64,000 nt of DNA from Myxococcales bacterium (GTDB lineage Bacteria; Myxococcota_A; Polyangia; Fen-1088), in assembly GCA_022184915.1 (NCBI GenBank), contig JAGTJU010000008.1, positions 6,760 to 70,759 of the forward strand, written 5' to 3'. Under the pieces are notes generated by a model. That model was not told the origin of the DNA, did not search any database, and saw only the letters and a list, made by a program, of their open reading frames with translations. Both the position numbers and the translations under genes were made by a program. The number at the start of each line of letters is the position of its first letter. Position 1 is the stretch's first letter. Shown one piece after another: positions 6,296 through 43,493 of the stretch.

Positions 6296-6350
6296 CCCGG
6301 CAGCAAGGCTGAGGATGCGAGGCGGCTTGCGTTAGTTGACAGAATACATT
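6296..6350 (+). repeat. repeat-family copy A (CCCGGCAGCAAGGCTGAGGATGCGAGGCGGCTTGCGTTAGTTGACAGAA…)
   Basis: One of at least 8 copies of the same ~65-bp unit in this window (see findings). Its CCCGGCAG end is a sharp boundary. Confidence 0.7.
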
Positions 6351-6830
6351 GCTCGAAATTGATCACTTTTTGACGCGAGTGGACTTCGTGCTTGAACTTC
6401 CTGTGCGCCACATTTTTTCGACGAAAGACTGAAGGGCGCTGTCGTACGTGGTGCCAGGCAGATCGTGCTTCTCTGCGCAGGGCTCGACAGCCGAGCGCAC
6501 TGGTTCCGGCAGATGCTTGAGGGTGTGACGGTGTTCGAGGTCGAGAAGGTGGCCGCCCTTTTTAAAATTTCACGCTCCATGCGCAGGGTCTTTACCTCGC
6601 GCCGAAGGGTCGAAAGTTCCTCACGCTCAGCCGTCGTCAGAGCGCCCTTGGGGCCTCGGCCTGCATCGGTATCTGCCTGACGGATCCACGTCCGCACGAG
6701 GCTCTCGGCGAGGCCCAAGTCCCGAGCCACCTCCGGTATCCCCCGCCGTCCGCTCTGGACGAGGGCGACTGTTTCACTCTTGAACTCCGGGGTATGGACC
6801 CGCCGGGTTCGTCTTTGCCTTGCTCATGTG
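6332..6830 (-). mobile_element. IS3-family transposase OrfA remnant (frameshifted, no OrfB)
   Basis: MSKAK then a +2 shift gives RRTRRVHTPEFKSETVALVQSGRRGIPEVARDLGLAESLVRTWIRQ… LTTAEREELSTLRREVKTLRMEREILKRAATF, the canonical IS3 OrfA HTH/leucine-zipper pattern. It degenerates after AATF and abuts repeat copy A. No integrase ORF follows. Confidence 0.55.
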
Positions 6831-7101
6831 GTCACCTTTCCACGCTCTTACAACTGAGCGCCGGTGTCCACTGAATCGGGTCAACCCCGTACGGTCCTTT
6901 CCCCGAAGCGGAAGCGTACCAAGCATGGGTTGATGCCTGGGCGGGCAGCACGGATCCGCTGTTCTTTTCCGTTTGCAACCATCAAGGACAAGCTTTGGGT
7001 GCGCTGCCTATCTTCGCATCGTGCCGGAGATAGGGTGCATTGAAGTGGGACACCTGAACTTCTCACCGCGCTTGCAGCGAACGCCCGCGGCCACGGAAGC
7101 G

Positions 7102-8397
7102 CTACCCCGCAAGCCCAGCCACCTTCCGCGCCGCCACACGCTGCTCATGCTCGAAGGCATCGGCGAACGCTTCCAGCTCCTGCTTCGTCATGCCCAGCGC
7201 TTTGCCTTCGGTCCGCCAGCGGCCAACCGCACTTTCAACCTCTGCGAGGATCTCGCGCGCCCGATTCGGCGATAGACGAAAATAAGCGCAGACGGACAAC
7301 AAGGCGTCGACGCTCGCATCGGGACCGGTCTCTTCGGAGATCCAGGTCTTGAGCTCGCGCACCCGTTCGGGAAATGGGTTTACGTCGAACGCGGGGGCGA
7401 GCCGCCACTGTCCGCGCTGAACATGCAGGAACCCGTGGTTCATGAGGTGATCGTCCACGTTGGTGATCAAGATCGAAAAAGCCATCCTCCGCCACAATTC
7501 TTCCGTGTCTGCCTGCGGCCGCACGCCCCATTGACGAAGGGCGTCGACGATCTCGGCGTAGGTATGTTCGGTAGAGTCGCTTAAATCAGCGCCAAGCATC
7601 GTAGCCGCCGAGACGTACATCAGACGACCGCCCGCCGGGTGCCGATCAAACCGTCGAATGAGAGCGACCGGCGCACCGTCGCTGTCGACCAGCCTGGCTA
7701 CGGCGGCGTCGATGCCAGCCAACCCAGCAAGTCGCAGGGCAAGCACTTCTCCTTTCGTGACGGCACGTTCGTCGCTCACGCTCGGAAACTTGCCGATCGC
7801 CAAGCCGCCGTCGTCGTCAATCACGGTGCACTTCGGCCGCAGCCCACCGAGCGAAGTTCCTCTTCCGCGCAAGTAAGCCAGGTCGGCAGACGTCTCCGTC
7901 TGCGTCTCCACGGCGCGGCTCGAGGCCAGAAGCGTGCCGAGCTCGATCAGGGGAGGAGCGGTGCGACGCCCTTCTTCGGGGGCCCTCTCGAAAATTCCGC
8001 GCTCGTCGCGAAACCGCAGGGCGCCCATCCGGCTCCCATCATCTACGGCCAGCAAGAAATCCAGCGCGTTCAGTGGCGCCGTCTGCACAGGTAAGCCTGC
8101 ATGTTTGGCTTGCTGCCGGCGCTTGGCATGATCGCGCGCAATCACCCTTCGCCCCCAGCCGTCTGGCTCCGTGTCCGCAATGGCGCGGTGAAACAGCGAT
8201 CCTCCTTCCGTCTTGCGGCGATACTGAGGACCTGCCACGAGCGGCAGCGCTGGATCAACCACGAAGGCTTCGCCGCTCGACAGCCAGAGCGGATCGTACT
8301 CGAACGCAGCGATCTCTCGCCCGCCTTCCTGCGCGTGCCGCAGAAGCCCGATGGGGCGCGCGCCATCGCCAAGATGGATCCACAACGTGCGCTTCAC
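7102..8397 (-). CDS. hipA: HipA-family toxin (Ser/Thr kinase)
   Basis: 431 aa. The C-terminal AFSILITNVDDHLMNHGFL matches the HipA catalytic motif. The N-terminal HipA_N-like region is present. ATGA overlap with the upstream HTH gene. Confidence 0.8.
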   Translation of the reverse strand: MKRTLWIHLGDGARPIGLLRHAQEGGREIAAFEYDPLWLSSGEAFVVDPALPLVAGPQYRRKTEGGSLFHRAIADTEPDGWGRRVIARDHAKRRQQAKHAGLPVQTAPLNALDFLLAVDDGSRMGALRFRDERGIFERAPEEGRRTAPPLIELGTLLASSRAVETQTETSADLAYLRGRGTSLGGLRPKCTVIDDDGGLAIGKFPSVSDERAVTKGEVLALRLAGLAGIDAAVARLVDSDGAPVALIRRFDRHPAGGRLMYVSAATMLGADLSDSTEHTYAEIVDALRQWGVRPQADTEELWRRMAFSILITNVDDHLMNHGFLHVQRGQWRLAPAFDVNPFPERVRELKTWISEETGPDASVDALLSVCAYFRLSPNRAREILAEVESAVGRWRTEGKALGMTKQELEAFADAFEHEQRVAARKVAGLAG

Positions 8398-8726
8398 AAC
8401 GGCTCGATCGCTTTCTTCGGGCGTATCCGCTTTGGCAAGCGTTCGAGATCCAGAAGCAACCCCTGGTCATCCCGCCGCGGGTCGATGATCTCGCTCAAGG
8501 CGTCGCCGAATCCCAGCACGAAGAGCGCCATCGCATAGACACCCAAGGAGACGGTGGGATCGCCTTTCTCGGCGCGACGATAGGTGCTTGTGGCGACCCC
8601 CATGCGCTCGGCCATCATCGCCGCGGTGAGGTGACGCTTCTTGCGAGCCACGCCAAGGTCGAAGCCAAACTTCGCAAGCCCCCGCCGAACCCGCGGCGGC
8701 AGTGTGTCAGTGACCCTGGAGCGCAT
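8394..8726 (-). CDS. hipB: HipB-like XRE-family HTH antitoxin
   Basis: 110 aa with an HTH (RKKRHLTAAMMAERMGVATSTYRRAEKG). It is overlap-coupled to hipA. Confidence 0.7.
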   Translation of the reverse strand: MRSRVTDTLPPRVRRGLAKFGFDLGVARKKRHLTAAMMAERMGVATSTYRRAEKGDPTVSLGVYAMALFVLGFGDALSEIIDPRRDDQGLLLDLERLPKRIRPKKAIEPL

Positions 8727-9202: not shown

Positions 9203-9394
9203 CCGTGATCAGCTCACCAAGACAGTCCCGCCGTCTTCACGGCTGGTGGATGCGCTGCCCTCGTTGCGCGCGTGGCGTCCAGATCTCGGCACCGATCATC
9301 CACTTGCGCAACGCCTCCCGGGATACACGAACGCCATGTAGCTCAGCAGGTTTTTCGTGAGTTTTCACTTTGCGTCTACACGCCGCTGTTAGGC
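9203..9394 (-). mobile_element. internally deleted fragment of the type-2 IS21-family element (istA codons ~105-150 joined to its IRL)
   Basis: 9203-9360 is >90 % identical to 31130-31290 (istA of the 29852-31658 element). 9360-9394 (TTTTCACTTTGCGTCTACA) matches that element's terminus. Confidence 0.5.
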
Positions 9395-11196
9395 CCAAGT
9401 AGAAATGTCCCCATTCCTGCAAAGTAGGAATGTCCCCTTATGGGTATTGAGGGATGGTAGCACCTTGGGGGCGGCGGGTGCGGAGTCGGCCGATCAGCGG
9501 GCCCCCAATGGCCCGCAGGCCGGCGGACCCGTTGCCATTGAGTTGATGCTCATCGCCGCCCCCCGTCAGCGGCCCTCGCACTAGACTCGGCCGCCTTGGC
9601 TCGGGTTTGGATCTCCAATTGTTCGCGGTCGCGTTTGCGCTGCTTACTGGCGTCGTTGTATCGCTTTCGCCGTGCTTTCTGTTCGGCCTCGAACTTGGCG
9701 AAGAAGTTTGCCATTTCAGTCCCGCATTCAGGTGACCCTTGCGTGGCCGCAATGGCTGAAGCCAGTCGGTCAGTGTTGGGGACTGATGGGATCACATCAG
9801 CAGTACGATTGGTTTCTGCGCGCGACTCGCGTAAGTGCGTTTTTTGTCGAAGCGTAAGTTTTTTCGAGGCCAATCGACGCTGGTCGCGCTCCTCCTGGCC
9901 TGCTCGGATGGTTGAGAGCACGGCGCCAAGCCGCTTGTTCTCGACAATCGCACCGGGAGCCACCAGAGGTTGCTTGTCGAGCACGGTATAGGTCAGAAGA
10001 TGGTTGGCGCAGCGGATCTCGACCTGACCATCCGCCGCTTCGAAGAGGCGCACGCGACGTCCGGCGAGGCTGAGTGATTCTGGGCTGGGCACAATCAGGT
10101 ACGTACGCCGCTGATAATGCACGACCAGGTTGCGCGTCATCGTGCGCTCCTCTTGCCAGGTGAAAACCTCCGAAAGGACTTCGCCTGGTTGCACCGGGCG
10201 GTGCGCATCATGGGGGTTCATCGGCGCATGTGCAAAGCGGCGGTTGTAGTCGACCATGAACTCCGGTGCATACGCGTTTGCGTCCGCCATCGTGCTTATT
10301 TCACGCAGACGCATTTCCTTGACGAGCCGGTCCTGCAAGGTCTTGTTCATGCGCTCGACACGGCCTTTGGCCTGCGGCGTATTGGCGCAGATGATCTCGA
10401 TGTTGAGATCGCCCAGCGCGCGACCGAACTGTGTAACACCGGCGGAACGGCCGCTCGAGCCTTCCTGGTTCACGCGGAAGATGCTGTGTTTGTCGCTGTA
10501 AAACGCCACCGGTTTTCCGTAGTGACTTAGATACGACTGCGTGGCGGCAAAATAGTCGAAGGCCGATTCACTCACCACAAAACGCAGTTCCATCAACCGT
10601 CCCGTCGCATCGTCCACGTAGACCAATGCCGTGCAGCGATCAGCGCGCGCCTCGAACCACTCATGGTCGCAGCCATCAATTTGCACCAGCTCGCCAAGAC
10701 ATTGGCGGCGGTGCCGGGGCTGATGAACACGCCGTTTGCGCTCCCCACGGGTGAGCCACAGTCCGGCCTCAGCGAGCCACCCACGGACAGTCTCACGGCT
10801 CGCGTGTATGCCGTGGATCTCAACGAGCTTCTCGTGCGCCAGCTTCGGCCCGAAATCCGCGTAGCGCTCGCGTACGAGAGCCACAACCATTGCCTTCGTT
10901 TCAGCAGCGAGCTTGCGATTGCTCGGACGCCCTCGCAGCTGCGACGTAAGCCCAGCCAACCCTTGCGCTTTGAACTGCCGGCAAAGGCGCTTTACTTGGC
11001 GTACGCTGAGCCCCAGCAGGCCCGCGGCTTTGGACTGTGTCAGACGCTTCTCGAGTACCCGACGGATCATCTCGCCTCGATCGATCTCTCGGTTGGACAT
11101 GGTTACGAATCCCTTCGGCATGAGTCCACCCATGAGGACGCATAACGCGGCTCAAAGGGGACATTTCTACTTGGGCCGAAGGGGACATTTGAACTT
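9394..11196 (-). mobile_element. IS21-family element (type 1), istA only, no istB
   Basis: Ends are TGTTAGGCCCAAGTAGAAATGTCCCC and (rc) TGTAGCGCCCAAGTTCAAATGTCCCC, i.e. TGT… termini with GACATTT sub-repeats. Flanking CGCCGC direct repeat. Only ~150 bp remain between istA and the end, so an IstB ATPase gene cannot fit. Confidence 0.75.
9550..11133 (-). CDS. istA: IS21-family transposase IstA
   Basis: 527 aa with an N-terminal HTH and DDE core (…VQIDGCDHEWFE… DDATGRLMELRFV…). ~50 % identical to the second IstA at 30071-31606. Confidence 0.85.
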   Translation of the reverse strand: MGGLMPKGFVTMSNREIDRGEMIRRVLEKRLTQSKAAGLLGLSVRQVKRLCRQFKAQGLAGLTSQLRGRPSNRKLAAETKAMVVALVRERYADFGPKLAHEKLVEIHGIHASRETVRGWLAEAGLWLTRGERKRRVHQPRHRRQCLGELVQIDGCDHEWFEARADRCTALVYVDDATGRLMELRFVVSESAFDYFAATQSYLSHYGKPVAFYSDKHSIFRVNQEGSSGRSAGVTQFGRALGDLNIEIICANTPQAKGRVERMNKTLQDRLVKEMRLREISTMADANAYAPEFMVDYNRRFAHAPMNPHDAHRPVQPGEVLSEVFTWQEERTMTRNLVVHYQRRTYLIVPSPESLSLAGRRVRLFEAADGQVEIRCANHLLTYTVLDKQPLVAPGAIVENKRLGAVLSTIRAGQEERDQRRLASKKLTLRQKTHLRESRAETNRTADVIPSVPNTDRLASAIAATQGSPECGTEMANFFAKFEAEQKARRKRYNDASKQRKRDREQLEIQTRAKAAESSARAADGGRR

Positions 11197-11213
11197 GGGC
11201 GCTACACGCCGCT

Positions 11214-11278
11214 ACCCGATATATGAATGTTCTGTCAACTAACGTAAGCCGTCTCGCATCCTCAGCCTTGCTGCCGGG
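11214..11278 (-). repeat. repeat-family copy B
   Basis: The reverse complement reads CCCGGCAGCAAGGCTGAGGATGCGAGACGGCTTACGTTAGTTGACAGAACATTCATATATCGGGT. Confidence 0.7.
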
Positions 11279-11413: not shown

Positions 11414-11818
11414 TCAACGCTCTTGCGAACAAGGAGATTCGACGGGGATCCGTAACGATCTCGCGGCTTCATCCAGGCGAACGTCATAAGTCACGAAGGC
11501 GCTGACATCAGACAGGTGCGTAAAGGCCGTCGCAAGGTGGATGGCGTCGAGGCTTCGCAGTACGTCCGGAGGCAGGTTCTCCGCGGTCTCAAGGATCCGA
11601 TCGTCGATTTTGAGTAGGGCAACGGCCGCTAGAACGCCGCGCGCACGATCAAGATGGTCCGGCGCTGCTCGCTTGACAGCTCGAACAAGCTCAACACGCG
11701 CAAGCTGCGACGAGAAGAACGTCTCGCCCGCGCGCAACCTGATCCAAGTTTGCAGCGCTACGGTTTCTGCCTCGCGCACCACGAGCTTCACCAGGGCAGA
11801 GGTGTCGAGATAGATCAC
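11414..11818 (-). CDS. vapC: PIN-domain toxin (VapC-like)
   Basis: 134 aa. MIYLDTSALV… and later D residues fit the PIN fold. ATGA-coupled to the upstream antitoxin. Confidence 0.7.
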   Translation of the reverse strand: MIYLDTSALVKLVVREAETVALQTWIRLRAGETFFSSQLARVELVRAVKRAAPDHLDRARGVLAAVALLKIDDRILETAENLPPDVLRSLDAIHLATAFTHLSDVSAFVTYDVRLDEAARSLRIPVESPCSQER

Positions 11819-12162: not shown

Positions 12163-12203
12163 CATCGCCAGTGGATAGGAAGTTCAAGCGCGACGACGCC
12201 ATG
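12163..12203 (+). repeat. 5' part of the extended repeat unit (GTGGATAGGAAGTT…GAGTCAGA), interrupted by an IS21 end
   Basis: Matches 41693-41733 of copy G. The IS21 type-2 IRL starts immediately after GAGTCAGA. Confidence 0.4.
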
Positions 12204-12489
12204 AGTCAGATGTCAACGCAAAGTAGAAATGTCCGCTTCTGCAAAGTAGAAATGTCCCGTGCGGCGCGGCGTGGAGGGGGTAGCGGAGGCGGGGTTTTGG
12301 CCACAGATGCACGGCGGGCACGGCCCGCGCGCAGGCAGGTGACGACGTGCGGCTGTGGGCAAGTGCAGGGCCAAAAGCATGCCGCAGCGGGGGTGGTGAG
12401 CTAGGCAAAGGGGCGCGGCACGATAGCGACCGCCCCCCCTCTGCCTCACGGGACTGTTGTGGGGCTCAGCGCCGCCTCGCGGGCTGCAG
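12203..12489 (+). mobile_element. solo left-end fragment (~290 bp) of the type-2 IS21-family element
   Basis: TGTCAACGCAAAGTAGAAATGTCCGC… onward is collinear with 29852-30140, then joins repeat copy C. Confidence 0.55.
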
Positions 12490-12552
12490 CCCGGCAGCAA
12501 GGGAGGATGCAAGGCGGCTTACGTTAGTTGACAGAAGATATTATATCGGGCG
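12490..12552 (+). repeat. repeat-family copy C
   Basis: CCGGCAGCAAGGGAGGATGCAAGGCGGCTTACGTTAGTTGACAGAAGATATTATATCGGGCG. Confidence 0.7.
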
Positions 12553-12559
12553 TTTTTTG

Positions 12560-13822
12560 ATGCGGACGGATGTGGCGCTTAAACTTCCGGTACACTGCGC
12601 GCCCGTGACGTCTCCGATCCGCTCCCCAGGCGGCGAGCCCAAACGCACCGCCCTAGGCTCGCCGCGCACCCCGGTTTCTCTCTGCCTCCGCTCCTGGCGG
12701 GCCCCGTGGGACGCGCCCGGGGGACGCAGAGCTGGTACTCACGGGGGGGGGCGTGCCGGATCCGCGGCTGTTTCCCGACGTGCCGCTCGTGCGCGCCTAC
12801 CGGCGTGTGCTGGCGCGAACAGGGCCCCGATTGCTCGACTATGGCGACGCTCGCGGGGAGGCGCGGCTGCGTGAGGCGCTGGCCCGCATGTTGGCCGAGA
12901 CGCGCGGCCTGGCCGCCACGTCCGACGATGTGCTCCTCATGCGGGCAGCCAGCAGGCGATCTGGCTGGCGGCGCAGGCTCTCTTGCGCCCTGGCGATCGC
13001 GTGGGCGTCGAGACCTACGGCTATCCGCCGGCCATGCAGGCGCTTCTCTCGACGGGTGCCGTGCTCGTGCCCCTGCACGTAGATGCCGAAGGCGTGCGCC
13101 TCGACGAACTCGAACGGGCCCTGGCGGCGGGAGGCCTCGTGGCGGCGTACCTGATACCTCGCCACCAATACCCGACGACGGCCTCGCTCATCGCGCCTCG
13201 TCGCCTGGCCTTGCTCGCGCTCGCCCGGCGGCACCGCTTTGCCCTCATCGAGGATGACTAGTCACACGAGTTTCACTTCACGGGGCGTCCCCGCTTACCC
13301 CTGGCCAGCCAGGACGCGCACGGTGTGGTCATCTACGTCGGCAGCCTGCTGAAGGTTCTAGCCCCAGGGCTGCGCATTGGCTACGCGGTGGCACCCGTGC
13401 CCGTGCTCGAACGCATGGCGGCCCTGCGGACATCCATCGACCGACAGGGCGACAACGTGGCCGAAGCGGCGGTGGCGGAGCTTCTCGAAGATGGTGATCT
13501 GGCCCGCCGTTCGCGTCGCATGCGCCAGGTCTATCAGGCAAGGCGCGACGTGCTGATGACGGCGCTTCGAGACACGCTGGGTGAACGCGTTTCGTTCGAG
13601 GTGCCCCAGGGCGGCATGGCGTTATGGGTACAGGTTCATGGCGACGATCCGGTCGCGTGGGCGAAAAAGGCACGGGAGTGCGGTGTCACGTTCGGCGCGG
13701 GACGCGATTACCACGTGTTTCGCAAGCCCGTGCCGTTCGTTCGCATGGGCTTCACACGCCTCGACGAACGTGAACTGCGGCGGGCGGTACGGTTGGCTGA
13801 AACCGCCTGGGTCGAGGCCTGA
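12560..13822 (+). pseudogene. PLP-dependent aminotransferase (MocR/class-I-like), 5'-truncated, with two frameshifts and an in-frame TAG
   Basis: Three frames carry consecutive pieces of one aminotransferase: …ELVLTGGG / PDPRLFPDVPLVRAYRRVLAR… / GSQQAIWLAAQALLRPGDRVGVETYGYP…IEDD*SHEFHFTG…VIYVGSLLKVLAPGLRIGYAVAP…. The frame changes occur at the G9 run (12743-12751) and near 12945, and there is a TAG at 13259-13261. Confidence 0.6.
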
Positions 13823-17136: not shown

Positions 17137-17756
17137 TACGTCCACTTGACAGCTCCTGGCGGTTTGACGAAGGCCTTGATCGCGCGTGCGTAACGGGACC
17201 AATCCTGGCGACGGGTATCTAGGTGCAAGAAGGGGAGGCGTGTCTTCTTTAGTCCGTCCCATCGGTGCGCCTGCGACCAGCGGACGGCTTCGATTGCAGC
17301 TTCTCGGGAGCCGTACCATGCGTCCATGTCTTGGGCCCACTCCAGCCTGTCGGGGCGCTCTATCGAACGTGTCTCCGCAAGCTCGGAAGGAAAGGTCAAC
17401 AGAACGAGAGAGGCGTCGAGCGCTTCGAGGCGCTCGTCGTATTGGTCGAGAAGTTCCCACCGAGGAAAGAGGGCGTAGGCCGTCAGGTGAAACCGCTCAA
17501 CCAAGAGCAGCCCCGCCGCCCCTTCGTCCCGGTGTCGTTCGATTCTGGCGAGGACCGCGTCGAGGGCCTCAAACCTGGGCCTCTCCCTCCAGGCGGGGTT
17601 GCGCACCTGGTTCATCAGGTCCCCAAGTGTGTCCTCCTCTGGGATGAGCGAGGGTCGATGGGAAAAGCAGCTCTCCATCGCGCGCAGAACCGACGTCTTT
17701 CCCGCCCCCGTGACGCCTTCCAGAATCAGAACGGAGCTCAATTGGGGGCACCCCAC
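17136..17756 (-). CDS. P-loop NTPase/kinase (nucleoside/nucleotide-kinase-like)
   Basis: Walker A ILEGVTGAGKTSVL near the N-terminus. 206 aa. Translationally coupled on both sides. Confidence 0.55.
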   Translation of the reverse strand: MGCPQLSSVLILEGVTGAGKTSVLRAMESCFSHRPSLIPEEDTLGDLMNQVRNPAWRERPRFEALDAVLARIERHRDEGAAGLLLVERFHLTAYALFPRWELLDQYDERLEALDASLVLLTFPSELAETRSIERPDRLEWAQDMDAWYGSREAAIEAVRWSQAHRWDGLKKTRLPFLHLDTRRQDWSRYARAIKAFVKPPGAVKWT

Positions 17757-18532: not shown

Positions 18533-18533
18533 A

Positions 18534-22008: not shown

Positions 22009-22009
22009 G

Positions 22010-27255: not shown

Positions 27256-27338
27256 CGTCCGTGGAGACCTACGGGTGCCAGATGAACGTGGCCGACACCG
27301 GGATGGTGCTTGGCATGCTGGCGGGCGCAGGCTACGGC
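27256..27338 (+). pseudogene. 5' stub (~28 codons) of a MiaB/RimO-like radical SAM methylthiotransferase
   Basis: (V)ETYGCQMNVADTGMVLGMLAGAGY is the invariant MiaB-family N-terminus (xYGCQMN…). It is cut exactly where repeat copy D begins. Confidence 0.45.
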
Positions 27339-27376
27339 CCGGCAGCAAGGCAGAGGATGCGAGGCGGCTTACGTTA
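27338..27376 (+). repeat. repeat-family copy D (5' 39 bp only, ends …CTTACGTTAG)
   Basis: CCCGGCAGCAAGGCAGAGGATGCGAGGCGGCTTACGTTAG directly abutting the ISAzo13-like element. Confidence 0.7.
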
Positions 27377-28707
27377 GGGGCTGCCGCGAAAAAAGTCGAT
27401 CGTCTCGTCATGTCGGTACGGTCGGGTGGATGGTGTAGTTCCACTCGCCGTGGAAGACGTTGGGATCGAGATTCACGAGTGCGAGGTCCTTGTCCGAGAC
27501 GCGGCGACCCTTGGCGTAAGTGCGACTGTCGACTCGGCTCTTCACGAGCAGTCCGGTCGTCGTCGTCGTCGCTGCGATTAGATTGACGATGACTTGATGG
27601 GTGACCAGAGGCTTTCCGCGCCAGTTCTGGGTGATGAAGGAAAACAAGCGGTGCTCGATCTTGTTCCACTTGCTCGTTCCCGGAGGCAGATGACAGACGG
27701 TGATGGGGAAGCGCAGGTCGTCGACGAGCTTTTGTAGCTCGAGCTTCCATAGGCGCAGCCTATAGCCGTTGCTTCCACCTCCGTCCGCCGTGATCACGAG
27801 CGAGGTCGCGTTTGGATACCTCGAGGCGCCCATCTCGCTCCACCAGGTGCGGATGCTCTGCACCGCGAATTCCCCCGTGTCGTGGCTCACGCCAACGCTG
27901 ACCCACGCCTCGTTCTTCTGGAGGTCGTAGATGCCGTACGGTGTGGCGCGTCCCTTTTCGTCGTCGACGAAGTCGTGCACGTTGACATCGACCGGATCTT
28001 CCTTCCCGCTGAGCTCGCGGCCGCCGTTCTTGTACGGTCCGACAAGCTCTCGTTTCTTCGTGTCCACAGAGATCGCCGGCTCGTTCGTTTCGAGCTGTCG
28101 ACGGAGTGTCTCGTTGATGTGCTCAAACTGAGCGTTTCGATCTGGATGCTGCGCGCCCTCAAGCCGCTTGCGATTCGCCTGGAGACTGTAGCCGAGCTCC
28201 TTGAGCAGTCTTGAGACCATCTTCATGCTCGTTTGGTGCCCCTGCTTCTTGAGCGCCTCCACGAGATTGCGCTGGCTACGAGCTGTCCACAGAAGCGGCG
28301 ACTCGGGATCTCCGCGTGTCGTCGATTCTACAAGCTTCTTCAGATCCGGAATCAATCTCGGATCCTTCTCGGTTGCCTTCTTGCGCCCGGCGCCTGGTCG
28401 ACGGCTTCGCGTTGGCGGTAAATGCCTCGCCGTCCCGTTTTCGATCGCCCGTACTTCGGCGATCCCGCGCCCCACCACGCTCGGTGCCATACCCGTCGCA
28501 CGAGATGCAGCGACAATGCCGCCGTAGCCAAAAGCGATCGCCTCGTTCGCCACGAATAGCCGCCGAGCTCTCTCTGTCAGACTCCCCTTTATCTTGCCGT
28601 AGCGATCCCGTATCTCGGATTCACGCCGCGATCGTTCCTTGGTCATGCACCTCCAATGGAGATCCTCCTCGCAGATAAAGTCAACCTATTTATTTCGCGG
28701 CAGGCCC
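27377..28707 (-). mobile_element. ISAzo13-family insertion sequence, copy 1 (1331 bp)
   Basis: Terminal inverted repeats GGGGCTGCCGCGAAAAAAGTCGATCG / (rc) GGGCCTGCCGCGAAATAAATAGGTTGAC. It contains a single 412-aa DDE transposase gene. Identical in length and ORF to the copy at 41814-43144. Confidence 0.75.
27408..28646 (-). CDS. ISAzo13-family (DDE_Tnp_ISAZ013-type) transposase
   Basis: 412 aa. N-terminus MTKERSRRESEIRDRYGKIKGSLTERARRLFVANEAIAFGYGGI… and a DDE region. 100 % identical to the protein of ORF 41875-43113. Confidence 0.75.
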   Translation of the reverse strand: MTKERSRRESEIRDRYGKIKGSLTERARRLFVANEAIAFGYGGIVAASRATGMAPSVVGRGIAEVRAIENGTARHLPPTRSRRPGAGRKKATEKDPRLIPDLKKLVESTTRGDPESPLLWTARSQRNLVEALKKQGHQTSMKMVSRLLKELGYSLQANRKRLEGAQHPDRNAQFEHINETLRRQLETNEPAISVDTKKRELVGPYKNGGRELSGKEDPVDVNVHDFVDDEKGRATPYGIYDLQKNEAWVSVGVSHDTGEFAVQSIRTWWSEMGASRYPNATSLVITADGGGSNGYRLRLWKLELQKLVDDLRFPITVCHLPPGTSKWNKIEHRLFSFITQNWRGKPLVTHQVIVNLIAATTTTTGLLVKSRVDSRTYAKGRRVSDKDLALVNLDPNVFHGEWNYTIHPTVPT

Positions 28708-28744
28708 TAACGTAAGCCGCCTTGCGCCCTAAGCTTGCTGCCGG
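28708..28744 (-). repeat. repeat-family copy E (inverted, 5' 37 bp only)
   Basis: The reverse complement is CCGGCAGCAAGCTTAGGGCGCAAGGCGGCTTACGTTAG. Together with copy D it forms an inverted pair around the IS. Confidence 0.7.
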
Positions 28745-29757: not shown

Positions 29758-29851
29758 GTAGATACAAGTATATACACCAAAGCCGGCCGCGGCAAGGGTC
29801 GCACCTAGATGGGGATAGGACGGACAAACACTGCGTCCTATCGCATCAAAA

Positions 29852-31658
29852 ATGTCAACGCAAAGTAGAAATGTCCGCTTTTCTGCAAGTTAGAAATGTC
29901 CTCCATGCGGCGCGTCAGGGGGTATTAGCGGAGGCGGGGTTTTGGCCACTTGTCCATAGATGCACGGCGGGCACGGCCCATGCCCAGGGCAGGTGGCGAC
30001 GTGCAGCTGTGGGCAAGTGCAGGGCCAAAAGCATGCCGCAGCGGCTGGTGAGCTACGCCAGCCGCTACGGCTACGTGGCGCCGTTGGTGCCCCGGTCCAG
30101 GGGGGGGGTCGACGCCTCGCGGGCTGCGGCTCTGCGGGCGCGTGCGGCTTCGGTGTAGCGACGCTGCTTGGCTTTTTGTTCCCGGTCAAACTCTTGCAAA
30201 TAGCTGGCGAAGGCTTCCGCTGCGCCAGGGTTAATGCCCGTGGGCGTTGGTCCCGCTGATTCAGCCTCCGCGCGTTGGGCACGCAATCGTTCCTTTTGTC
30301 GAAGCGTGAGCTTCTTGGACCTAAGACGGGCTTCATCTCGAACCTGCTGCTGCTGCTGAATGACCGCCAGCGCAGTGCCCAATCGATTGTTCTCGACAAT
30401 CTCACCCTGGTTCACGTGGGGACTCTTGTCGAAGAGTGCAAAGGAAAGCGGCTGGTTGTTGTGGCGCAATTGCACTTGGCCGTCTTTCCACAAGTGCACG
30501 CGCACGGTCTTTCCCGCAAGCTTGCTCGTTTCTGTCGTTGGTTCGACCAGATATGAGTTTCTCTGAAACTGCACCACCAGACTCTGCGACAGCTTTCGGT
30601 CCTCTTGCCACGTGAAGATGAGATTCAAGTCCTCGCCCTCAAGCAAGGGACGGTGGGCATTATGAAGACTGCGAGGAGCACGCTCGAAGCGGTTGTTGTA
30701 GGCGTCCATAAAGGCAGGGACGAAGGCATTCGCATCTTCCGCATTGCTGATACCATGAAGCCGCAGCTCCTTGACCAAACGGTCTTGCAGCGTCTTGTTC
30801 ATGCGCTCTACACGACCTTTGGCCTGCGCTGTGTTCGCACAAATGATGTCTATGTTTAGTTCTCCCAATGCGCGACCATACTGCGTGACACCCTTTGCCG
30901 CACCTGTTGAACCTTCCTGGTTTACTCGGAAGATGCTGTGTTTGTCGCTATAGAAGGCCGCTGGCTTTCCATGCTTCCGTACGTAGCTTGCAGTCGCATC
31001 GAAGTAGTCGAAGGCCGATTCCACTTCCACAAAGCGCAGCTCCATCAGCCTTCCCGTGGCATCGTCGATGAACACCAACAGGGTGCATCTTTGTCCGCGG
31101 CCCTCGAACCATTCGTGATCGCTCCCATCTATCTGAACCAGCTCACCAAGACAGTCCCGCCGTCTTCGCGGCTGGTGGATGCGCGGCCCTCGTTGCGCCC
31201 GCGGCGTCCAGATCTCGGCGCCGATCATCCACTTGCGCAACGTCTCCCGGGATACACGAACGCCATGTAGCTCAGTAAGTTTCTCGTGAGCCAACGTCGG
31301 CCCGAAGTCCCTGTAGCGCTCACTGATGAGACCTACGGCGTACTCTTGCACCACCTCCGGCAACTGACGGTTGCTGGGGCGTCCGCGCTTTCGCGACACG
31401 AGAGCCCGAGGCCCTTGACACCTCATGGACTGGCACAATCGGCGCACCTGGCGCTGACTAAGTCCCAGAACCATGGCGGCTTCTGCTTGCGTCAGCCGCT
31501 TTTCCAACACTCGCTGGACGACCTGCATTCGGTCCATTTCCAGCGCGCTCATCGTGACAAGATCCCTGGCCATTGCGGCCCGAGGCTGCCAGGCAGCGGC
31601 GCCCAAAAGAGGACATTTCTAAGTTGCACAAAGCGGACATTTTCACTTTGCGTCTACA
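29852..31658 (-). mobile_element. IS21-family element (type 2), istA only, no istB
   Basis: Ends are TGTCAACGCAAAGTAGAAATGTCCGC and (rc) TGTAGACGCAAAGTGAAAATGTCCGC. Only ~220 bp remain beyond the istA stop. Fragments of this element also occur at 9203-9394 and 12203-12489. Confidence 0.75.
30071..31606 (-). CDS. istA: IS21-family transposase IstA
   Basis: 511 aa, HTH plus DDE. A paralogue of 9550-11133. Confidence 0.85.
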   Translation of the reverse strand: MGAAAWQPRAAMARDLVTMSALEMDRMQVVQRVLEKRLTQAEAAMVLGLSQRQVRRLCQSMRCQGPRALVSRKRGRPSNRQLPEVVQEYAVGLISERYRDFGPTLAHEKLTELHGVRVSRETLRKWMIGAEIWTPRAQRGPRIHQPRRRRDCLGELVQIDGSDHEWFEGRGQRCTLLVFIDDATGRLMELRFVEVESAFDYFDATASYVRKHGKPAAFYSDKHSIFRVNQEGSTGAAKGVTQYGRALGELNIDIICANTAQAKGRVERMNKTLQDRLVKELRLHGISNAEDANAFVPAFMDAYNNRFERAPRSLHNAHRPLLEGEDLNLIFTWQEDRKLSQSLVVQFQRNSYLVEPTTETSKLAGKTVRVHLWKDGQVQLRHNNQPLSFALFDKSPHVNQGEIVENNRLGTALAVIQQQQQVRDEARLRSKKLTLRQKERLRAQRAEAESAGPTPTGINPGAAEAFASYLQEFDREQKAKQRRYTEAARARRAAAREASTPPLDRGTNGAT

Positions 31659-31728
31659 TCAGAAAGCCCGATAAAATATGTTCTGTCAACTAACGTAAGC
31701 CGCCTTGCGCCCTAAGCTGGCTGCCGGG
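31659..31728 (-). repeat. repeat-family copy F (full ~70 bp)
   Basis: The reverse complement is CCCGGCAGCCAGCTTAGGGCGCAAGGCGGCTTACGTTAGTTGACAGAACATATTTTATCGGGCTTTCTGA. It directly follows the IS21 terminus. Confidence 0.7.
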
Positions 31729-38679: not shown

Positions 38680-39137
38680 CGAAGAGTCTCCGCGGTCACG
38701 GCCCAGAAAAAGAGCGCCTCCCATCGGGGATCCCTCTTTGTCAGATAGATGCTTTGGCCCCAGGGGTCGTCACCCGCGTGACCTGCACCGCCTGCCTCCA
38801 CGGCCAACGGTTTTCGAAGGAGGGGGCCGCGCCGGACGCCGGATTCGCCCGCCAGCATGGAGGCCGCTCGTGTATACGCGAGGGCCAGCTCCTCAGCCGT
38901 GGGAGGATCGAAGAGGGCCGTCGCTGGGTCGAGCCGGGTGCGCCCGGGGCCGTGCACGCGAAAGAAGCGCTGTTCGTTTCCGTGACAACCCGAGAACGCG
39001 CAGTCGGCGAGCAGAATCGGATAGACGGTGGACGCAAACGCCGCAGGGTCGGGGCGGGGGGGGGACGCCTCCTCGGGAGGGGGTGCGCAGGCCCACAGGA
39101 TCGAGCCGACGAAGCACGCGCCCCATCGCCTCAGCAT
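38676..39137 (-). CDS. small secreted protein with CAFSGCH motif
   Basis: Signal MLRRWGACFVGSILWACA, 153 aa. It is overlap-coupled between the DUF2063 gene and the CxxCH-protein gene. Confidence 0.45.
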   Translation of the reverse strand: MLRRWGACFVGSILWACAPPPEEASPPRPDPAAFASTVYPILLADCAFSGCHGNEQRFFRVHGPGRTRLDPATALFDPPTAEELALAYTRAASMLAGESGVRRGPLLRKPLAVEAGGAGHAGDDPWGQSIYLTKRDPRWEALFFWAVTAETLR

Positions 39138-40015
39138 GGGTCTACGCCCTCCCAGAAGCCGAACTTCACCGACTCGGCAAGCCAGGCCTTCACAAGGTGC
39201 GAAAGACGAGTGGGGGGCAAAGCGATGGCTTCACGCTCGAGAGCCGCCAGGGCCTCGGCCAGCGGCAATTCCGACAAGCGTTCGTAGAGACGTGCCTGCA
39301 ATTCGTCGATCAGCCACAGGCGAGGCCCGGTTTCGCCCCTTACGAGGGCGGCGTGAACCCGCCGGGGGTGTTGCGGGGGTAGGGGCACGGGGGCTTCTGG
39401 AGGGAGTGAGGTCAAGCGGCTGCGCAACGCGAGCAGGGGCCAGTCTTCCTCGACCAAAAAGAACCGACCCGAGGGACGAAGGCGGCCCGTGGCCAGCTGG
39501 TCCGTGCCGACTCGCTGAAACGCACGCGACGTCTCCGCCCGGGGTTCCGGGGCCCAAAAAGCTGCACGGTACGCAGCATCGATGCGAGCGGCCTGGACGA
39601 GCGCCGTGGCGGATACGGCCGCACCCTCGAACGGCGGGAGTCCTGCGTTGTGACCTTGCGCGAGCCAATCGTCGAAGCCGAGGGCAACCTCCCCGAGGTC
39701 GTGCCCCCGGGGTGGGTGCTTTTCCAGGAAGCCTGCGACCAAACCGTTGAAGCCCCAAGCCCCCGCCAGTGCCGCGACCAGGCGATACTCGTTTTGCATG
39801 ACCGCGAACAAACGAAACCAGTACTGTCGCTGGTAGACCGCCAGCCTTTCGCCGGGACTGAGCCCATGGCCCGCTTTGGCCTCGTTCAACAGTCGACGAG
39901 GATAGTCTTCAGGACGGGCTCGCAGCGTCCGCGACCTGCGGTCCAGGGGCGTTCTCAGGACGTCAGAGAAGTCTCTCTGAAACTGCGCGAGCCAGGCAGG
40001 GCCTGCCAGGGTCAT
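39131..40015 (-). CDS. DUF2063-family protein (MNIO partner; BufC/HvfC-like)
   Basis: Start at MTLAGPAWLAQFQRDF (ATGA overlap with the DUF692 stop). RLAVYQRQYWFRLFAVMQNEYRLVAALAGAWGFNGLVAGFLEKHPPRGHDLGEV matches the DUF2063 core (vYrnn…FP…G…F…HPP…L). Confidence 0.6.
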   Translation of the reverse strand: MTLAGPAWLAQFQRDFSDVLRTPLDRRSRTLRARPEDYPRRLLNEAKAGHGLSPGERLAVYQRQYWFRLFAVMQNEYRLVAALAGAWGFNGLVAGFLEKHPPRGHDLGEVALGFDDWLAQGHNAGLPPFEGAAVSATALVQAARIDAAYRAAFWAPEPRAETSRAFQRVGTDQLATGRLRPSGRFFLVEEDWPLLALRSRLTSLPPEAPVPLPPQHPRRVHAALVRGETGPRLWLIDELQARLYERLSELPLAEALAALEREAIALPPTRLSHLVKAWLAESVKFGFWEGVDPC

Positions 40016-40956
40016 GCGCGGACCTTTCGTGCCTCGGCGAGTTCCTCGATGACGACCTCGAGGGGTGGTATCGCTGCGTCCCACTCGACGAGCGTAGGAA
40101 AGGGCCCCCCCAAAGCCCAGGCGAAGCGATAGAGCTCCCAAACCTCCCGAATGATGGGTTGGTCGTGGGTGTCGATGATCGTTCCATCCGGCTGTTTCGT
40201 GTGGCCAGCGAGGTGCACCTGCAGCACGCGCGAGTAGTCGATCGCCTCGAGGTACACCCGTGGGTCGAAGCCGTGGTTGACGCTCGAAACGTACACGTTG
40301 TTGATGTCCAACATGAACCAGCAGCCTGAGTCTTTGACGACGCGGGAGTAAAACTCCCACTCCGGCATGGAGGAGCGCTCGAATGCGACGTAGGTGGACA
40401 GGTTCTCGATGCCAAAGGGCCGGTCAAGCCGGCGCTGCACTTCACAAGCACGCTCTGCAGCCAGCTCGACGAGCTCGGGGACATAAGGGGTGGGCAGCAG
40501 GTCGTGGTGCGAGACGCCTTCGGCCCCCGACCAGCACAGGTGATCGGTGACGAAAGGCACCGCGAGAGCATTGGCCAGATCGGTGACCTTCTGCAGGTAC
40601 TCTTCGTCGAGAGGCGCGTGTCCCAGGAGGTTCAGCGTCACCCCGTGCATGACCACGGGATAGAGGGCACGAATCCGTGCCAGATGCCGGTTGGGTGGTG
40701 AGTCTGGACGAAGATAGTTCTCCGTAATGATCTCGACGTAATCAACGGGTGGTTTGGTCGTCTGGAGTGCGTCGTAAAACGGGGGCCGGAGCCCAACGCC
40801 CAGGGCGTCGCGGGCGAGGGCAGGCCTGGCGGTGTCTTTGGCCTTTGGAGACACGAGCCCGGGAGGGTACCTCAGGATCGTTCTGCCTCCCCTGCGGCAA
40901 TAGGTCGCACCCCCTGACCTTGCCCCCGGGGCTGGCTGGCGGCACCCTCGTGGCAT
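40012..40956 (-). CDS. DUF692/MNIO-family enzyme (BufB/HvfB-like)
   Basis: LGVGLRPPFYDALQTTKPPVDYVEIITENYL… HGVTLNLLG… FMLDINNVYVSSVNHG… LQVHLAGH is a canonical DUF692 domain. The true start may be a GTG near 40851 rather than the first ATG. Confidence 0.7.
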   Translation of the reverse strand: MPRGCRQPAPGARSGGATYCRRGGRTILRYPPGLVSPKAKDTARPALARDALGVGLRPPFYDALQTTKPPVDYVEIITENYLRPDSPPNRHLARIRALYPVVMHGVTLNLLGHAPLDEEYLQKVTDLANALAVPFVTDHLCWSGAEGVSHHDLLPTPYVPELVELAAERACEVQRRLDRPFGIENLSTYVAFERSSMPEWEFYSRVVKDSGCWFMLDINNVYVSSVNHGFDPRVYLEAIDYSRVLQVHLAGHTKQPDGTIIDTHDQPIIREVWELYRFAWALGGPFPTLVEWDAAIPPLEVVIEELAEARKVRA

Positions 40957-41185
40957 GCAGGATCGCAGTTTGCGCACACGTCTCGGCCTTCTTGCCTGCG
41001 CGCTTCTTTCGTTCCTCACGGGCTGCCTGCGTGTTCCGCCCTACCTGCGAGAGACCCTGGCCCGACGCGACATGACCCTGGGGCGGGAGGCCGCCCTTCG
41101 AGCGGGGGAACGCCACGCGCAGGCCTACCGAGAAGGTGCGAGTGGGGGAGGAGAGGTCCGAAGTGGAGGTTGCGGGTGCAACTGA
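40955..41185 (+). CDS. 76-aa lipoprotein ending in GGCGCN (candidate MNIO substrate/precursor)
   Basis: Lipoprotein signal MQDRSLRTRLGLLACALLSFLTGC, then a 52-aa mature peptide ending …GGGEVRSGGCGCN*. It is divergent from the DUF692-DUF2063 operon. Confidence 0.4.
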   Translation: MQDRSLRTRLGLLACALLSFLTGCLRVPPYLRETLARRDMTLGREAALRAGERHAQAYREGASGGGEVRSGGCGCN

Positions 41186-41689: not shown

Positions 41690-41795
41690 GGTGGATAGGA
41701 AGTTTAAAGGAGACAACGCGTCGAGTCAGAAAGCCCGATAAAATATGTTCTGTCAACTAACGTAAGCCGCCTTGCGCCCTAAGCTGGCTGCCGGG
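41690..41795 (-). repeat. repeat-family copy G (longest, ~106 bp, includes the GTGGATAGGAAGTTTAAAGGAGACAACGCGTCGAGTCAGA extension)
   Basis: …GGTGGATAGGAAGTTTAAAGGAGACAACGCGTCGAGTCAGAAAGCCCGATAAAATATGTTCTGTCAACTAACGTAAGCCGCCTTGCGCCCTAAGCTGGCTGCCGGG. Confidence 0.7.
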
Positions 41796-41813
41796 CAAAG
41801 GAATCGTCAGAAA

Positions 41814-43144
41814 GGGCCTGCCGCGAAATAAATAGGTTGACTTTATCTGCGAGGAGGATCTCCATTGGAGGTGCATGACCAAGGAACGATCGCGGCGTGA
41901 ATCCGAGATACGGGATCGCTACGGCAAGATAAAGGGGAGTCTGACAGAGAGAGCTCGGCGGCTATTCGTGGCGAACGAGGCGATCGCTTTTGGCTACGGC
42001 GGCATTGTCGCTGCATCTCGTGCGACGGGTATGGCACCGAGCGTGGTGGGGCGCGGGATCGCCGAAGTACGGGCGATCGAAAACGGGACGGCGAGGCATT
42101 TACCGCCAACGCGAAGCCGTCGACCAGGCGCCGGGCGCAAGAAGGCAACCGAGAAGGATCCGAGATTGATTCCGGATCTGAAGAAGCTTGTAGAATCGAC
42201 GACACGCGGAGATCCCGAGTCGCCGCTTCTGTGGACAGCTCGTAGCCAGCGCAATCTCGTGGAGGCGCTCAAGAAGCAGGGGCACCAAACGAGCATGAAG
42301 ATGGTCTCAAGACTGCTCAAGGAGCTCGGCTACAGTCTCCAGGCGAATCGCAAGCGGCTTGAGGGCGCGCAGCATCCAGATCGAAACGCTCAGTTTGAGC
42401 ACATCAACGAGACACTCCGTCGACAGCTCGAAACGAACGAGCCGGCGATCTCTGTGGACACGAAGAAACGAGAGCTTGTCGGACCGTACAAGAACGGCGG
42501 CCGCGAGCTCAGCGGGAAGGAAGATCCGGTCGATGTCAACGTGCACGACTTCGTCGACGACGAAAAGGGACGCGCCACACCGTACGGCATCTACGACCTC
42601 CAGAAGAACGAGGCGTGGGTCAGCGTTGGCGTGAGCCACGACACGGGGGAATTCGCGGTGCAGAGCATCCGCACCTGGTGGAGCGAGATGGGCGCCTCGA
42701 GGTATCCAAACGCGACCTCGCTCGTGATCACGGCGGACGGAGGTGGAAGCAACGGCTATAGGCTGCGCCTATGGAAGCTCGAGCTACAAAAGCTCGTCGA
42801 CGACCTGCGCTTCCCCATCACCGTCTGTCATCTGCCTCCGGGAACGAGCAAGTGGAACAAGATCGAGCACCGCTTGTTTTCCTTCATCACCCAGAACTGG
42901 CGCGGAAAGCCTCTGGTCACCCATCAAGTCATCGTCAATCTAATCGCAGCGACGACGACGACGACCGGACTGCTCGTGAAGAGCCGAGTCGACAGTCGCA
43001 CTTACGCCAAGGGTCGCCGCGTCTCGGACAAGGACCTCGCACTCGTGAATCTCGATCCCAACGTCTTCCACGGCGAGTGGAACTACACCATCCACCCGAC
43101 CGTACCGACATGACGAGACGATCGACTTTTTTCGCGGCAGCCCC
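41814..43144 (+). mobile_element. ISAzo13-family insertion sequence, copy 2 (inverted relative to copy 1)
   Basis: Same 1331-bp element as 27377-28707 with the same termini. Only the flanks differ. Confidence 0.75.
41875..43113 (+). CDS. ISAzo13-family transposase (identical to 27408-28646)
   Basis: 412 aa identical. The ORFs nested on the opposite strand (41843-42205 and others) mirror those of copy 1. Confidence 0.75.
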   Translation: MTKERSRRESEIRDRYGKIKGSLTERARRLFVANEAIAFGYGGIVAASRATGMAPSVVGRGIAEVRAIENGTARHLPPTRSRRPGAGRKKATEKDPRLIPDLKKLVESTTRGDPESPLLWTARSQRNLVEALKKQGHQTSMKMVSRLLKELGYSLQANRKRLEGAQHPDRNAQFEHINETLRRQLETNEPAISVDTKKRELVGPYKNGGRELSGKEDPVDVNVHDFVDDEKGRATPYGIYDLQKNEAWVSVGVSHDTGEFAVQSIRTWWSEMGASRYPNATSLVITADGGGSNGYRLRLWKLELQKLVDDLRFPITVCHLPPGTSKWNKIEHRLFSFITQNWRGKPLVTHQVIVNLIAATTTTTGLLVKSRVDSRTYAKGRRVSDKDLALVNLDPNVFHGEWNYTIHPTVPT

Positions 43145-43430
43145 TTAGTCTCAGGGGTAAAGCACTCAAGGAGGCCGCGGCCACTCTTGACATAAGCGTG
43201 AAAACAGTTGAGCAGTATTGGGCGCGGATCTACGTCAAGATTGGCTGCAATAGCCGGGAAGCTGTTGTAGGCCAGCTTGTTGAAATGATGACTGAAAGCC
43301 CAGATAACTATTTATCAGACCCACGCACAAGCGGCCGTGCCTAGGACGTTCCAAGCGCGAGACGTCCATGTGTCCTATTTTGGCGTGCGTACAGGAACTA
43401 CAAGCGCCACGTCCCTCCGCGGCAAATTTG

Positions 43431-43493
43431 TCTGATAAAACATGTTCTATCAACTAACGTAAGCCGCCTTGCGTCCTTAGCCTTACTGCCGGG
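43431..43493 (-). repeat. repeat-family copy H (diverged)
   Basis: The reverse complement is CCCGGCAGTAAGGCTAAGGACGCAAGGCGGCTTACGTTAGTTGATAGAACATGTTTTATCAGAC. Confidence 0.65.

Follow-up and report, generated by a model that had tools for sequence, protein, structure and literature searches.

What is the short repeat that recurs beside insertion sequences (IS) in an IS-rich island of a Myxococcales metagenome-assembled genome (MAG), and how did its copies arise? The window analysed here is a stretch of 64,000 nt from the 145.8-kb contig JAGTJU010000008.1, and all positions given below are counted within it. A first-pass annotation of this DNA had described a family of ~65-110-bp units in at least eight copies, sharp at one end and fraying at the other, and had offered three interpretations: the terminus or solo end of an uncharacterised mobile element, an insertion target preferred by several IS families, or a recombination site. 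We find that the unit is very probably the oriIS end of a rolling-circle transposon of the IS91/ISCR family that resides in the same window and of which it makes up the final ~105-113 nt. The first interpretation is thus correct in substance, except that the element is not an uncharacterised one. We also regard as likely the broader statement that couples this identity with a proposal for the solo copies, namely that they are products of premature termination of transposition.

The parent transposon and its oriIS end

The full-length IS91/ISCR-family element occupies positions 43387..45207 (minus strand); its right (oriIS) end is supported by the comparisons below, while the left end is provisional. 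It encodes an apparently intact HUH/Y2 transposase of 500 aa (43609..45111, minus strand) with the Pfam domains Y2_Tnp (PF04986, E 3e-29) and Zn_Tnp_IS91 (PF14319, E 3e-16). The NCBIfam model for ISCR clade Ia matches with E 8e-105, which is under its cutoff; as the NCBIfam equivalog scores stay under their cutoffs, the protein is a member of the superfamily but not of a named clade. Its identity to the ISCR2 transposase is 41% over the full length, and its HFH and RYI/RYHG stretches align with those of ISCR2, which suggests that they are the catalytic motifs. The unit copy at 43387..43493 (minus strand, 107 nt) forms the 3' end of this element, starting 114 nt past the transposase stop codon, and the terminal motif lies ~220 nt past the stop. 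The IS91 element had been taken for a mere neighbour of this copy, whereas it is in fact the parent of the repeat. That the unit might turn out to be the 3' end of a single known IS had been named beforehand as an outcome that would overturn the idea of a separate repeat family, and our result comes close to it.

Further evidence came from relatives whose termini can be mapped by comparing different insertion contexts. The terminus of ISCR2 (ISVsa3) was located directly after GGTGCTTTATACTTCCTATACTC, ~230 nt past the stop codon, using three plasmids whose sequences diverge right after this point. The distal part of the unit reads GCGCTTGTAGTTCCTGTACGC, or GCTTGAACTTCCTATCCAC in other copies, and resembles this terminus; the terminal motifs GCTTTATACTTCCTATACTC of ISCR2 and GCTTGAACTTCCTATCCAC of the units are homologous, and the distance between terminus and transposase stop is similar. 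Beyond the last ~25 nt, however, ISCR2 and the window element cannot be aligned, and reading the ISCR2 3' region by eye revealed neither a dif-like box nor the CTTGTTTTC motif, both of which are described below for the window element. The last ~120 nt of the window element align with the 3' ends of two closer relatives, P0060 and P0025 (each 50% amino acid identity). The two contexts of P0060 are identical up to the end of GCTTGAATGCCCTGTCCCC and diverge beyond, while P0025 exhibits the same architecture with three different contexts past its terminus. The P0025 box, AGTTGACAGAA...TATATCGG, is almost identical to that of the unit; its terminus shares the architecture of the unit but not the terminal motif. 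In these relatives the unit-equivalent sequence is 100% identical across the different contexts and ends where the contexts diverge. Of the closest transposase relatives, L002 and L009 are truncated before the unit is reached, and L008 meets its contig end within it. The window element accordingly possesses a distinct oriIS end 3' of the transposase gene and no terminal inverted repeats, as is characteristic of the family.

A solo origin end was also found for ISCR2 itself: a tandem copy of its last 62 nt follows the complete element on E. coli plasmid RCS38_p (L024, NZ_LT985250.1). This counterpart of the solo origin ends in the window sits upstream of aph(3')-VI.

All eight P0025 contigs (L025-L032) have their upstream DNA in common, including a 135-aa epimerase fragment, and differ downstream of the terminus, which suggests that the fragment is captured DNA travelling with the element. 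The P0060 element lies in an apparent genomic island beside a tRNA-Pro gene (L010 567-642 and downstream), which comprises a TraI/primase-like ORF and an integrase gene, the latter read by eye only.

Copies and boundaries of the unit

All copies listed in the first-pass annotation were recovered by pattern search, BLAST with the unit and self-comparison of the window, the expected number of matches in shuffled sequence being 0. A profile search, with the profile built from complete copies, detected 11 unit pieces in the window and no others. Four units are complete: the 3' end of the parent and three solo copies at 6296..6408 (plus strand, 113 nt; degenerate and with its XerC-like arm, see below, replaced), 12490..12595 (plus strand, 106 nt) and 41691..41795 (minus strand, 105 nt; hereafter c41796). 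A fifth, c31729, is likewise complete but interrupted by an IS, its first part being located at 31659..31728 (minus strand) and its second part with the oriIS terminus beyond the inserted IS at 29811..29852 (minus strand), a piece that was newly found here. The oriIS end is intact and the internal sequence continuous in all five, and unit lengths range from 105 to 113 nt. The remaining pieces are the first part of unit c11278 (11207..11278, minus strand, including a 6-bp duplication GCGGCG), a second half with the oriIS terminus (12171..12210, minus strand), the first 40 nt of a unit at 27338..27377 (plus strand), the first 38 nt of unit c28744 (28707..28744, minus strand) and a partial unit without its first ~45 nt (4935..4977, minus strand). 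Subtypes of the unit differ by up to ~25%, while c31729 and c41796 are identical over 71 nt. Of note, the extended sequence reported for the copy at 41690 is correct, but had been written on the strand opposite to the unit.

The sharp end could be confirmed: similarity stops at (G)CCCGG in 8/8 copies retaining it. Read in the orientation of the transposase gene, this is the 5' start of the unit at (G)CCCGGCAG, found in 8/8 copies that keep this side, and the sequences upstream are unrelated. Only the partial piece ending at 4977 is cut at another, non-canonical point. The other end does not fray as had been described; it is a defined terminus located 9 nt past the CCT of AACTTCCTRTNCNC. Its frayed look results from the second half of the unit being more divergent and being cut off by IS insertions. 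The polarity assigned to the repeat must consequently be reversed, the allegedly frayed end being the oriIS terminus and CCCGG an internal, ter-like boundary. From the boundary onwards the module consists of (G)CCCGGCAG and a GC-rich stretch, a dif-like box, ~35 nt and the GCTTGAACTTCCTRTNCNC terminus.

The unit lacks terminal inverted repeats, its start and end not being complementary, and flanking direct repeats are absent at the three complete solo units, which fits the expectation for the IS91/ISCR family.

The internal boundary and the origin of the solo copies

In the parent element the motif CCTTGTTTTC (43495..43504, minus strand), which we propose as a ter-like cleavage signal, is located directly 5' of the unit boundary. 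Right upstream of this boundary CTTGTTTTC is present in the window element, in P0060 and P0025 and in metagenome contigs L034-L036, while it is absent upstream of all solo copies in the window. Apparent solo first halves with the same start point and without CTTGTTTTC also occur in L037 and L041. As the boundary recurs in these two other metagenomes, it characterises the clade rather than being a local accident. A hairpin following CTTGTTTTC is clear in P0060 and P0002 and has a stem of 3 bp at most in P0025. According to the published description of IS91-family elements, terIS comprises a subterminal palindrome adjoined by a short motif (PMC13181058), and in IS801 right-end fragments of 229, 360 and 679 nt with a ter-like tetranucleotide boundary accounted for 26% of the trapped insertions (PMC3189936).

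Because the clade-wide CTTGTTTTC boundary matches the layout of terIS and IS801 provides a precedent, we lean towards the view that the solo units are products of rolling-circle transposition that started at oriIS and ended early at the internal ter-like site. The HUH transposase would nick at the oriIS terminus and displace the strand toward the transposase gene. A fraction of these events would terminate after only ~105 nt, at the ter-like CTTGTTTTC directly 5' of CCCGG, and the short product would insert elsewhere as a miniature non-autonomous copy. Such copies would retain a working origin, making them re-mobilisable in trans, and would carry upstream DNA along whenever termination is missed; we propose that missed termination accounts for the gene fragments abutting the CCCGG side.

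At the other extremity of the parent, GCCCGGCAG followed by ACCGGG (hairpin CCCGG-CAGA-CCGGG) is found after CTTCGTTTGGCC. This candidate terIS (45199..45207, minus strand) is suggestive only. The junction of CTTCGTTTGGCC with GCCCGGCAGACCGGG at this candidate left end resembles the internal site, where CCTTGTTTTC joins GCCCGGCAGTAAGG.

Several observations weigh against the reading proposed here. The left end was placed from GCCCGGCAG and the hairpin only, and the 9-mer GCCCGGCAG has two other background matches in the window; neither could the left boundary be obtained from relatives, since the P0060 and P0025 contexts share all upstream sequence available. The secondary structure of the units is no better than that of shuffled sequences (z = -0.5 to +0.9). 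Exact-word scans for the conserved core did not find the unit in GTDB representative genomes or IMG/VR, those of JGI metagenomes returned one chance match only, in a low-GC coding region, and BLASTN of two units against plasmids gave no match. No solo units were found within 3 kb of the full-length copies of relatives. Beside the termini there is no GTTC or CTTG, the flanks being ACGC, CCCC, TGCG, CACA, TGGC and ATCT. We know of no GTTC/CTTG-type target rule for ISCR elements. In IS91, IS801 and IS1294 such a tetranucleotide adjoins oriIS (PMC13181058); when target tetranucleotides were checked in P0060, its two contexts were also found to differ from each other beyond the terminus. Finally, most units are joined to unrelated gene fragments, which fits rearrangement as well, and rearrangement is what Bardaji et al. 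(2011, PMC3189936) held responsible for most genomic IS801 fragments.

The last point leads to an alternative, according to which the solo units are remnants of full-length copies that were cut down by deletion, by IS-mediated events or by recombination between units. The island is dense with IS elements and gene fragments, the flanks of one inserted IS derive from two unit subtypes, the inverted pair of units around an ISAzo13 copy requires a rearrangement (both described below), and the cut of the piece ending at 4977 is non-canonical. However, random deletions would scatter the end points, whereas the boundary is identical in 8/8 copies possessing the 5' side. Moreover, upstream of the solo copies neither the 114-nt spacer nor the transposase gene has left a trace, and the same boundary is met in two other metagenomes. 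We thus consider remnants an unlikely source of the solo units.

IS1202-family elements insert at one point of the unit

The two supposed IS21 types of the island are in fact ISNCY/IS1202-family elements with a single ORF and a length of 1.8 kb (NCBIfam ISNCY_2, E 1e-144). They share 48-52% transposase identity with ISAba32, ISKpn21 and ISLad2 of the IS1202 family, and their ends read TGT...ACA, with repeated subterminal AAGTAGAAATGTCC sites. An identical IS1202-family transposase, P0121, is encoded on another contig of the MAG, of 1.83 Mb. The ISAba32 subgroup is characterised by a TnsB-like DDE transposase of ~440-510 aa, TGT...ACA ends and extra subterminal sites, and the window elements agree with this description in transposase, ends and subterminal sites.

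Element #1 (9387..11206, minus strand, 1820 bp) is flanked by the target-site duplication CGCCGC and lies between unit c11278 and an older partial copy of the #2 type, which contains the left inverted repeat (IRL; 9210..9380, minus strand) and had hit the same unit. Element #2 (29853..31658, minus strand, 1806 bp) interrupts c31729 with its IRL abutting the XerC-like arm of the unit; its flanks are recombinant, being derived from two unit subtypes. The fourth case is a fragment with the right inverted repeat (12211..12406, minus strand; 84.5% identical to #2), which adjoins the unit half at 12171-12210. These four independent insertions hit one base of the unit, 14 nt past the A of ATCGG, in one orientation with the IRL toward the first half of the unit and 5-6 bp from its XerC-like arm. 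The same position and orientation were found in at least five distinct oriIS contexts for P0180, a 61%-identical relative present on ten metagenome contigs (L033-L042). It generated a 5-bp duplication, TGACG, in L034, and tandem IS copies are spaced 5 bp apart in L041 and L042. The insertion in L040 lies elsewhere, yet a GCCAGAA motif is present at equal distance.

This targeting explains most of the observation that the units always lie at IS boundaries, a statement that is loosely true, with gaps of 0-130 nt. The second of the initial interpretations, an insertion target shared by several IS families, accordingly holds for the IS1202 family only; targeting was not shown for IS3, and the case of ISAzo13 is ambiguous, one of its two copies being inside units.

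A dif-like box within the unit

The insertion point is adjacent to a box resembling the Xer site dif, which in c41796 (41731..41758, minus strand) consists of a XerD-like arm, AGTTGACAGAA, the centre CATATT and a XerC-like arm, TTATCGGGCTT; the consensus is AGTTGAYAGAA, 6-7 nt, TATCGG. Read outward from the IRL the order is 5 nt, AAGCCCGATAA, AATATG and TTCTGTCAACT. We found no published myxobacterial dif sequence. The XerD-like arm TTCTGTCAACT matches TTATGTTAAAT at 8/11 positions (null about 9e-4), the XerC-like arm matches weakly at 4-7/11, and both arms together agree with dif of A. baumannii at 13-14/22 positions, which random sequence achieves with ~7e-4 even when nine registers are allowed. 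Wherever the XerD-like arm is retained its sequence is the same, while centre and XerC-like arm vary, as is the case at real Xer sites (xrs).

Members of the ISAba32 subgroup insert at Xer sites in fixed orientation with the IRL 5-6 bp from the XerC arm; successive insertions place the newest IS nearest to the site, and partial copies keep the IRL (PMC10132070; bioRxiv 10.1101/2022.12.17.520857). The insertions described above resemble this targeting of xrs/pdif sites in IRL spacing, single orientation, 5-6-bp duplications, tandem copies, IRL-keeping partial copies and TGT...ACA ends. They differ in that the site forms part of the oriIS end of a rolling-circle element rather than being a plasmid pdif or a chromosomal dif. 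Judged from these patterns, the unit probably carries a dif-like site that would attract IS1202-family elements similar to the ISAba32 subgroup; Xer recombinases might use it. The third initial interpretation, a recombination site, is somewhat strengthened by this 11-6-11 box in the register of the ISAba32 subgroup. A further idea, tentative and doubtful, is that the origin module of an ISCR-like clade, present in Myxococcota and in related metagenomes, contains a XerC/D recombination site that is functional.

If the box is what matters, the unit might be an independent Xer-type site that bounds gene modules in the manner of pdif/xrs cassettes and owes its ends to site-specific recombination. 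The arm matches, the invariant XerD-like arm next to a variable centre and XerC-like arm, and tandem and partial IS copies that follow the published pattern would all suit such a site, as would the toxin-antitoxin modules located between units. But an exchange within the 6-8-nt centre cannot account for boundaries that are conserved at distances of 37 nt and 40 nt from the box. Furthermore, homology to the 3' ends of related transposons extends over the entire unit, which terminates where their termini were mapped; the units of the array are mostly in direct rather than alternating orientation; some members of the IS family adjoin sequences that are only loosely dif-like (Harmer et al.); and no recombinase gene was detected among the window ORFs scanned. 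An independent Xer site is for these reasons improbable, and we treat the box as a component of the oriIS end.

On contig L033 (positions 1-902) an IS91-family transposase gene stands beside a gene for a 295-aa tyrosine recombinase of XerC/D size, close to an oriIS fragment that carries an IS1202-family insertion. This arrangement may bear on the use of Xer by such elements. In contigs L029 and L030 the oriIS region of P0025 is interrupted right after AGTTGACAGAA, ~100 nt past the transposase stop; this is likely a different inserted element, as the inserted sequence lacks the TGT start of the IS1202 type.

Other explanations of the unit

A separate repeat of the miniature inverted-repeat transposable element (MITE) or REP type, serving as a shared insertion hotspot next to which an IS91-family element happened to land, would account for units beside four IS families. 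It is nevertheless very hard to reconcile with equivalent sequences that lie within the elements of relatives, are 100% identical across contexts and end where these diverge, with the homology of the unit end to the ISCR2 terminus, and with the lack of terminal inverted repeats, flanking direct repeats and a palindromic fold. Least credible is a structured small RNA or regulatory leader, as suggested by a perfect TTGACA hexamer in the unit, given that the unit has no Rfam family at gathering score and folds no better than shuffles, that reading by eye revealed no -10 element at proper spacing, and that downstream genes are unrelated or missing.

Several specific candidates were tried and rejected. 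A sigma-70 promoter directed outward from TTGACA has no -10 element at 16-18 nt. A Tn3-type inverted repeat (ACGTTAG compared with ACGTTAAG) lacks an outer GGGG end and a partner. An integron attC site was dismissed since there is no imperfect palindrome (z about 0) and no tyrosine recombinase among the ORFs scanned. The unit has neither the terminal inverted repeats nor the target-site duplication of a MITE. Likewise, single-strand folds compared with shuffles gave no significant structure in the 3' ends of relatives or at the candidate left end. MITEPsy2 does not qualify as an IS801-derived precedent, as it is Tn3-related; the relevant precedent is provided by the unnamed 229/360/679-nt IS801 fragments.

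An inverted pair of units around an ISAzo13 copy

Two ISAzo13-family copies, 100% identical to each other and with ends AGGG(G/C)CTGCCGCGAAA, are present in the window. Copy 1 (27376..28708, minus strand, 1333 bp) is flanked by two partial units in inverted orientation, which belong to different subtypes and are located at 27338..27377 and 28707..28744; it cuts both. Copy 2 (41813..43145, plus strand) is situated outside the units, 16 nt upstream of c41796. No recognisable target duplication is present at either copy. The inverted pair around copy 1 had been noticed before and could be verified: the arms measure 38-40 nt, the perfect inverted repeat GGCGGCTTACGTT / AACGTAAGCCGCC that flanks the IS derives from the two unit subtypes, and once the IS is removed the sequence folds with -33.4 kcal/mol (z = -8.3). 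The simplest reading is that ISAzo13 inserted twice, at the same point of two units, namely the outer edge of the XerD-like arm, and that the IS copies subsequently recombined.

Gene context of the units

On the minus strand the full-length element is followed by 260 bp, a unit (c41796), ~10 kb, a second unit, ~1 kb with mazEF-like genes and a partial unit. From reading by eye we take the 260-bp segment between the full-length element and c41796 to be a putative fragment of a gene for a LuxR-type helix-turn-helix (HTH) protein. In a second, short array a PIN/VapC toxin gene is enclosed by two units, with room for an antitoxin ORF. Toxin-antitoxin modules located between units are HipA with an HTH partner (7102-8726), PIN/VapC (11414-11818) and MazF/PemK (29129-29827).

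At 27338 and 28744 units truncate genes with their CCCGG side, the former a MiaB-like N-terminal fragment and the latter, through CCGG, an upstream ORF. For the ORF at 28643-29071, previously taken for RNase H, neither Pfam nor NCBIfam gave a match. About 100 nt past the oriIS end of the unit at 12490 there is a frameshifted aminotransferase pseudogene without its N-terminal part. A segment of 235 bp (4970-5204), joined directly to the truncated unit at 4935-4977, is 88% identical in DNA sequence to the 3' portion of a gene of the dihydrofolate reductase (DHFR) family on a plasmid of the alphaproteobacterium Microvirga terrae, and was the only match in a plasmid megablast of 28 kb of the island. 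This gene fragment in a Myxococcales MAG was apparently acquired horizontally. Capture by read-through from origin-bearing units is a hypothesis for such neighbours, and ordinary rearrangement fits the truncated genes equally well.

A 48-bp tandem repeat (22241-22628; 8.1 copies, 95% matches) in the ORF at 22010-23005 (minus strand) encodes a 16-aa peptide eight times in a protein that also has pentapeptide repeats. Its neighbours (17738-23917) are genes for a B12-binding radical-SAM protein, two members of the TP_methylase family, an Asp/Arg beta-hydroxylase and an MbnB/TglH-like protein, and the region may represent a cluster with a multi-core precursor of a ribosomally synthesised and post-translationally modified peptide (RiPP). 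Two MbnB/TglH/ChrH-family genes are found near the IS island (loci 3454-4869, 23021-23917, 39131-41019), as is a gene read by eye as DUF692-like beside a DUF2063 gene, of which Pfam confirms DUF2063 only. This points to several peptide-modification loci around the island.

Comparison with known systems and implications

The closest parallel is provided by the IS801 miniatures (PMC3189936), which likewise belong to the IS91 family, keep an intact ori end and an internal stretch, possess a sharp inner boundary at a ter-like sequence (a putative one in the window) and lack a transposase, and whose genomic copies lie beside other IS elements and accessory genes as the window units do. The window units are shorter (105-113 nt), and their boundary follows the 9-nt clade-conserved CTTGTTTTC instead of a bare tetranucleotide. 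Moreover, their parent, which belongs to a Myxococcales MAG, is ISCR-like with 41% identity to ISCR2, and mobility of the units is a proposal. Classical MITEs are also short, non-coding, present in multiple copies and dependent on a transposase supplied in trans, as the unit would be; the unit differs from them by the absence of terminal inverted repeats and target-site duplications, and by having two functionally distinct ends, one ter-like and one ori. Integron cassette arrays resemble the island in that repeats, mostly in one orientation, separate short segments including toxin-antitoxin genes, but unlike attC the unit is not palindromic, is homologous to a transposon end and is accompanied by no integrase that we found. 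Ori-end miniatures of the IS91 family and targeting of xrs by the IS1202 family are thus known kinds of phenomena. Their joint occurrence is new, as are the host group and an internal ter-like boundary shared across the clade.

The annotation of the island is corrected by these results, IS21 calls becoming IS1202-family elements and the IS91 neighbour becoming the parent of the repeat. As of 2018, experimental proof of transposition was lacking for all ISCR elements (PMC6218425). Natural miniatures with two exact boundaries indicate where an ISCR-like element may start and stop, and they offer a 105-nt substrate and, with CTTGTTTTC, a candidate ter signal for ISCR-type transposition. If the clade indeed harbours functional Xer sites in its origins, each 105-nt solo module would combine a portable origin with a portable Xer site. 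The modules would delimit segments that can be shuffled by HUH read-through or by Xer, such as vapBC, mazEF and the captured foreign fragment, and would thereby constitute a hybrid between gene capture of the ISCR type and pdif/xrs cassettes; IS1202-family elements would specifically parasitise them. The repeated, oriented insertion of ISAba32-type elements suggests Xer-type sites inside transposon origins; xrs targeting by IS1202-family elements would then extend to Myxococcota as well as to sites of a new kind, and two mobility systems that have been described separately would be linked.

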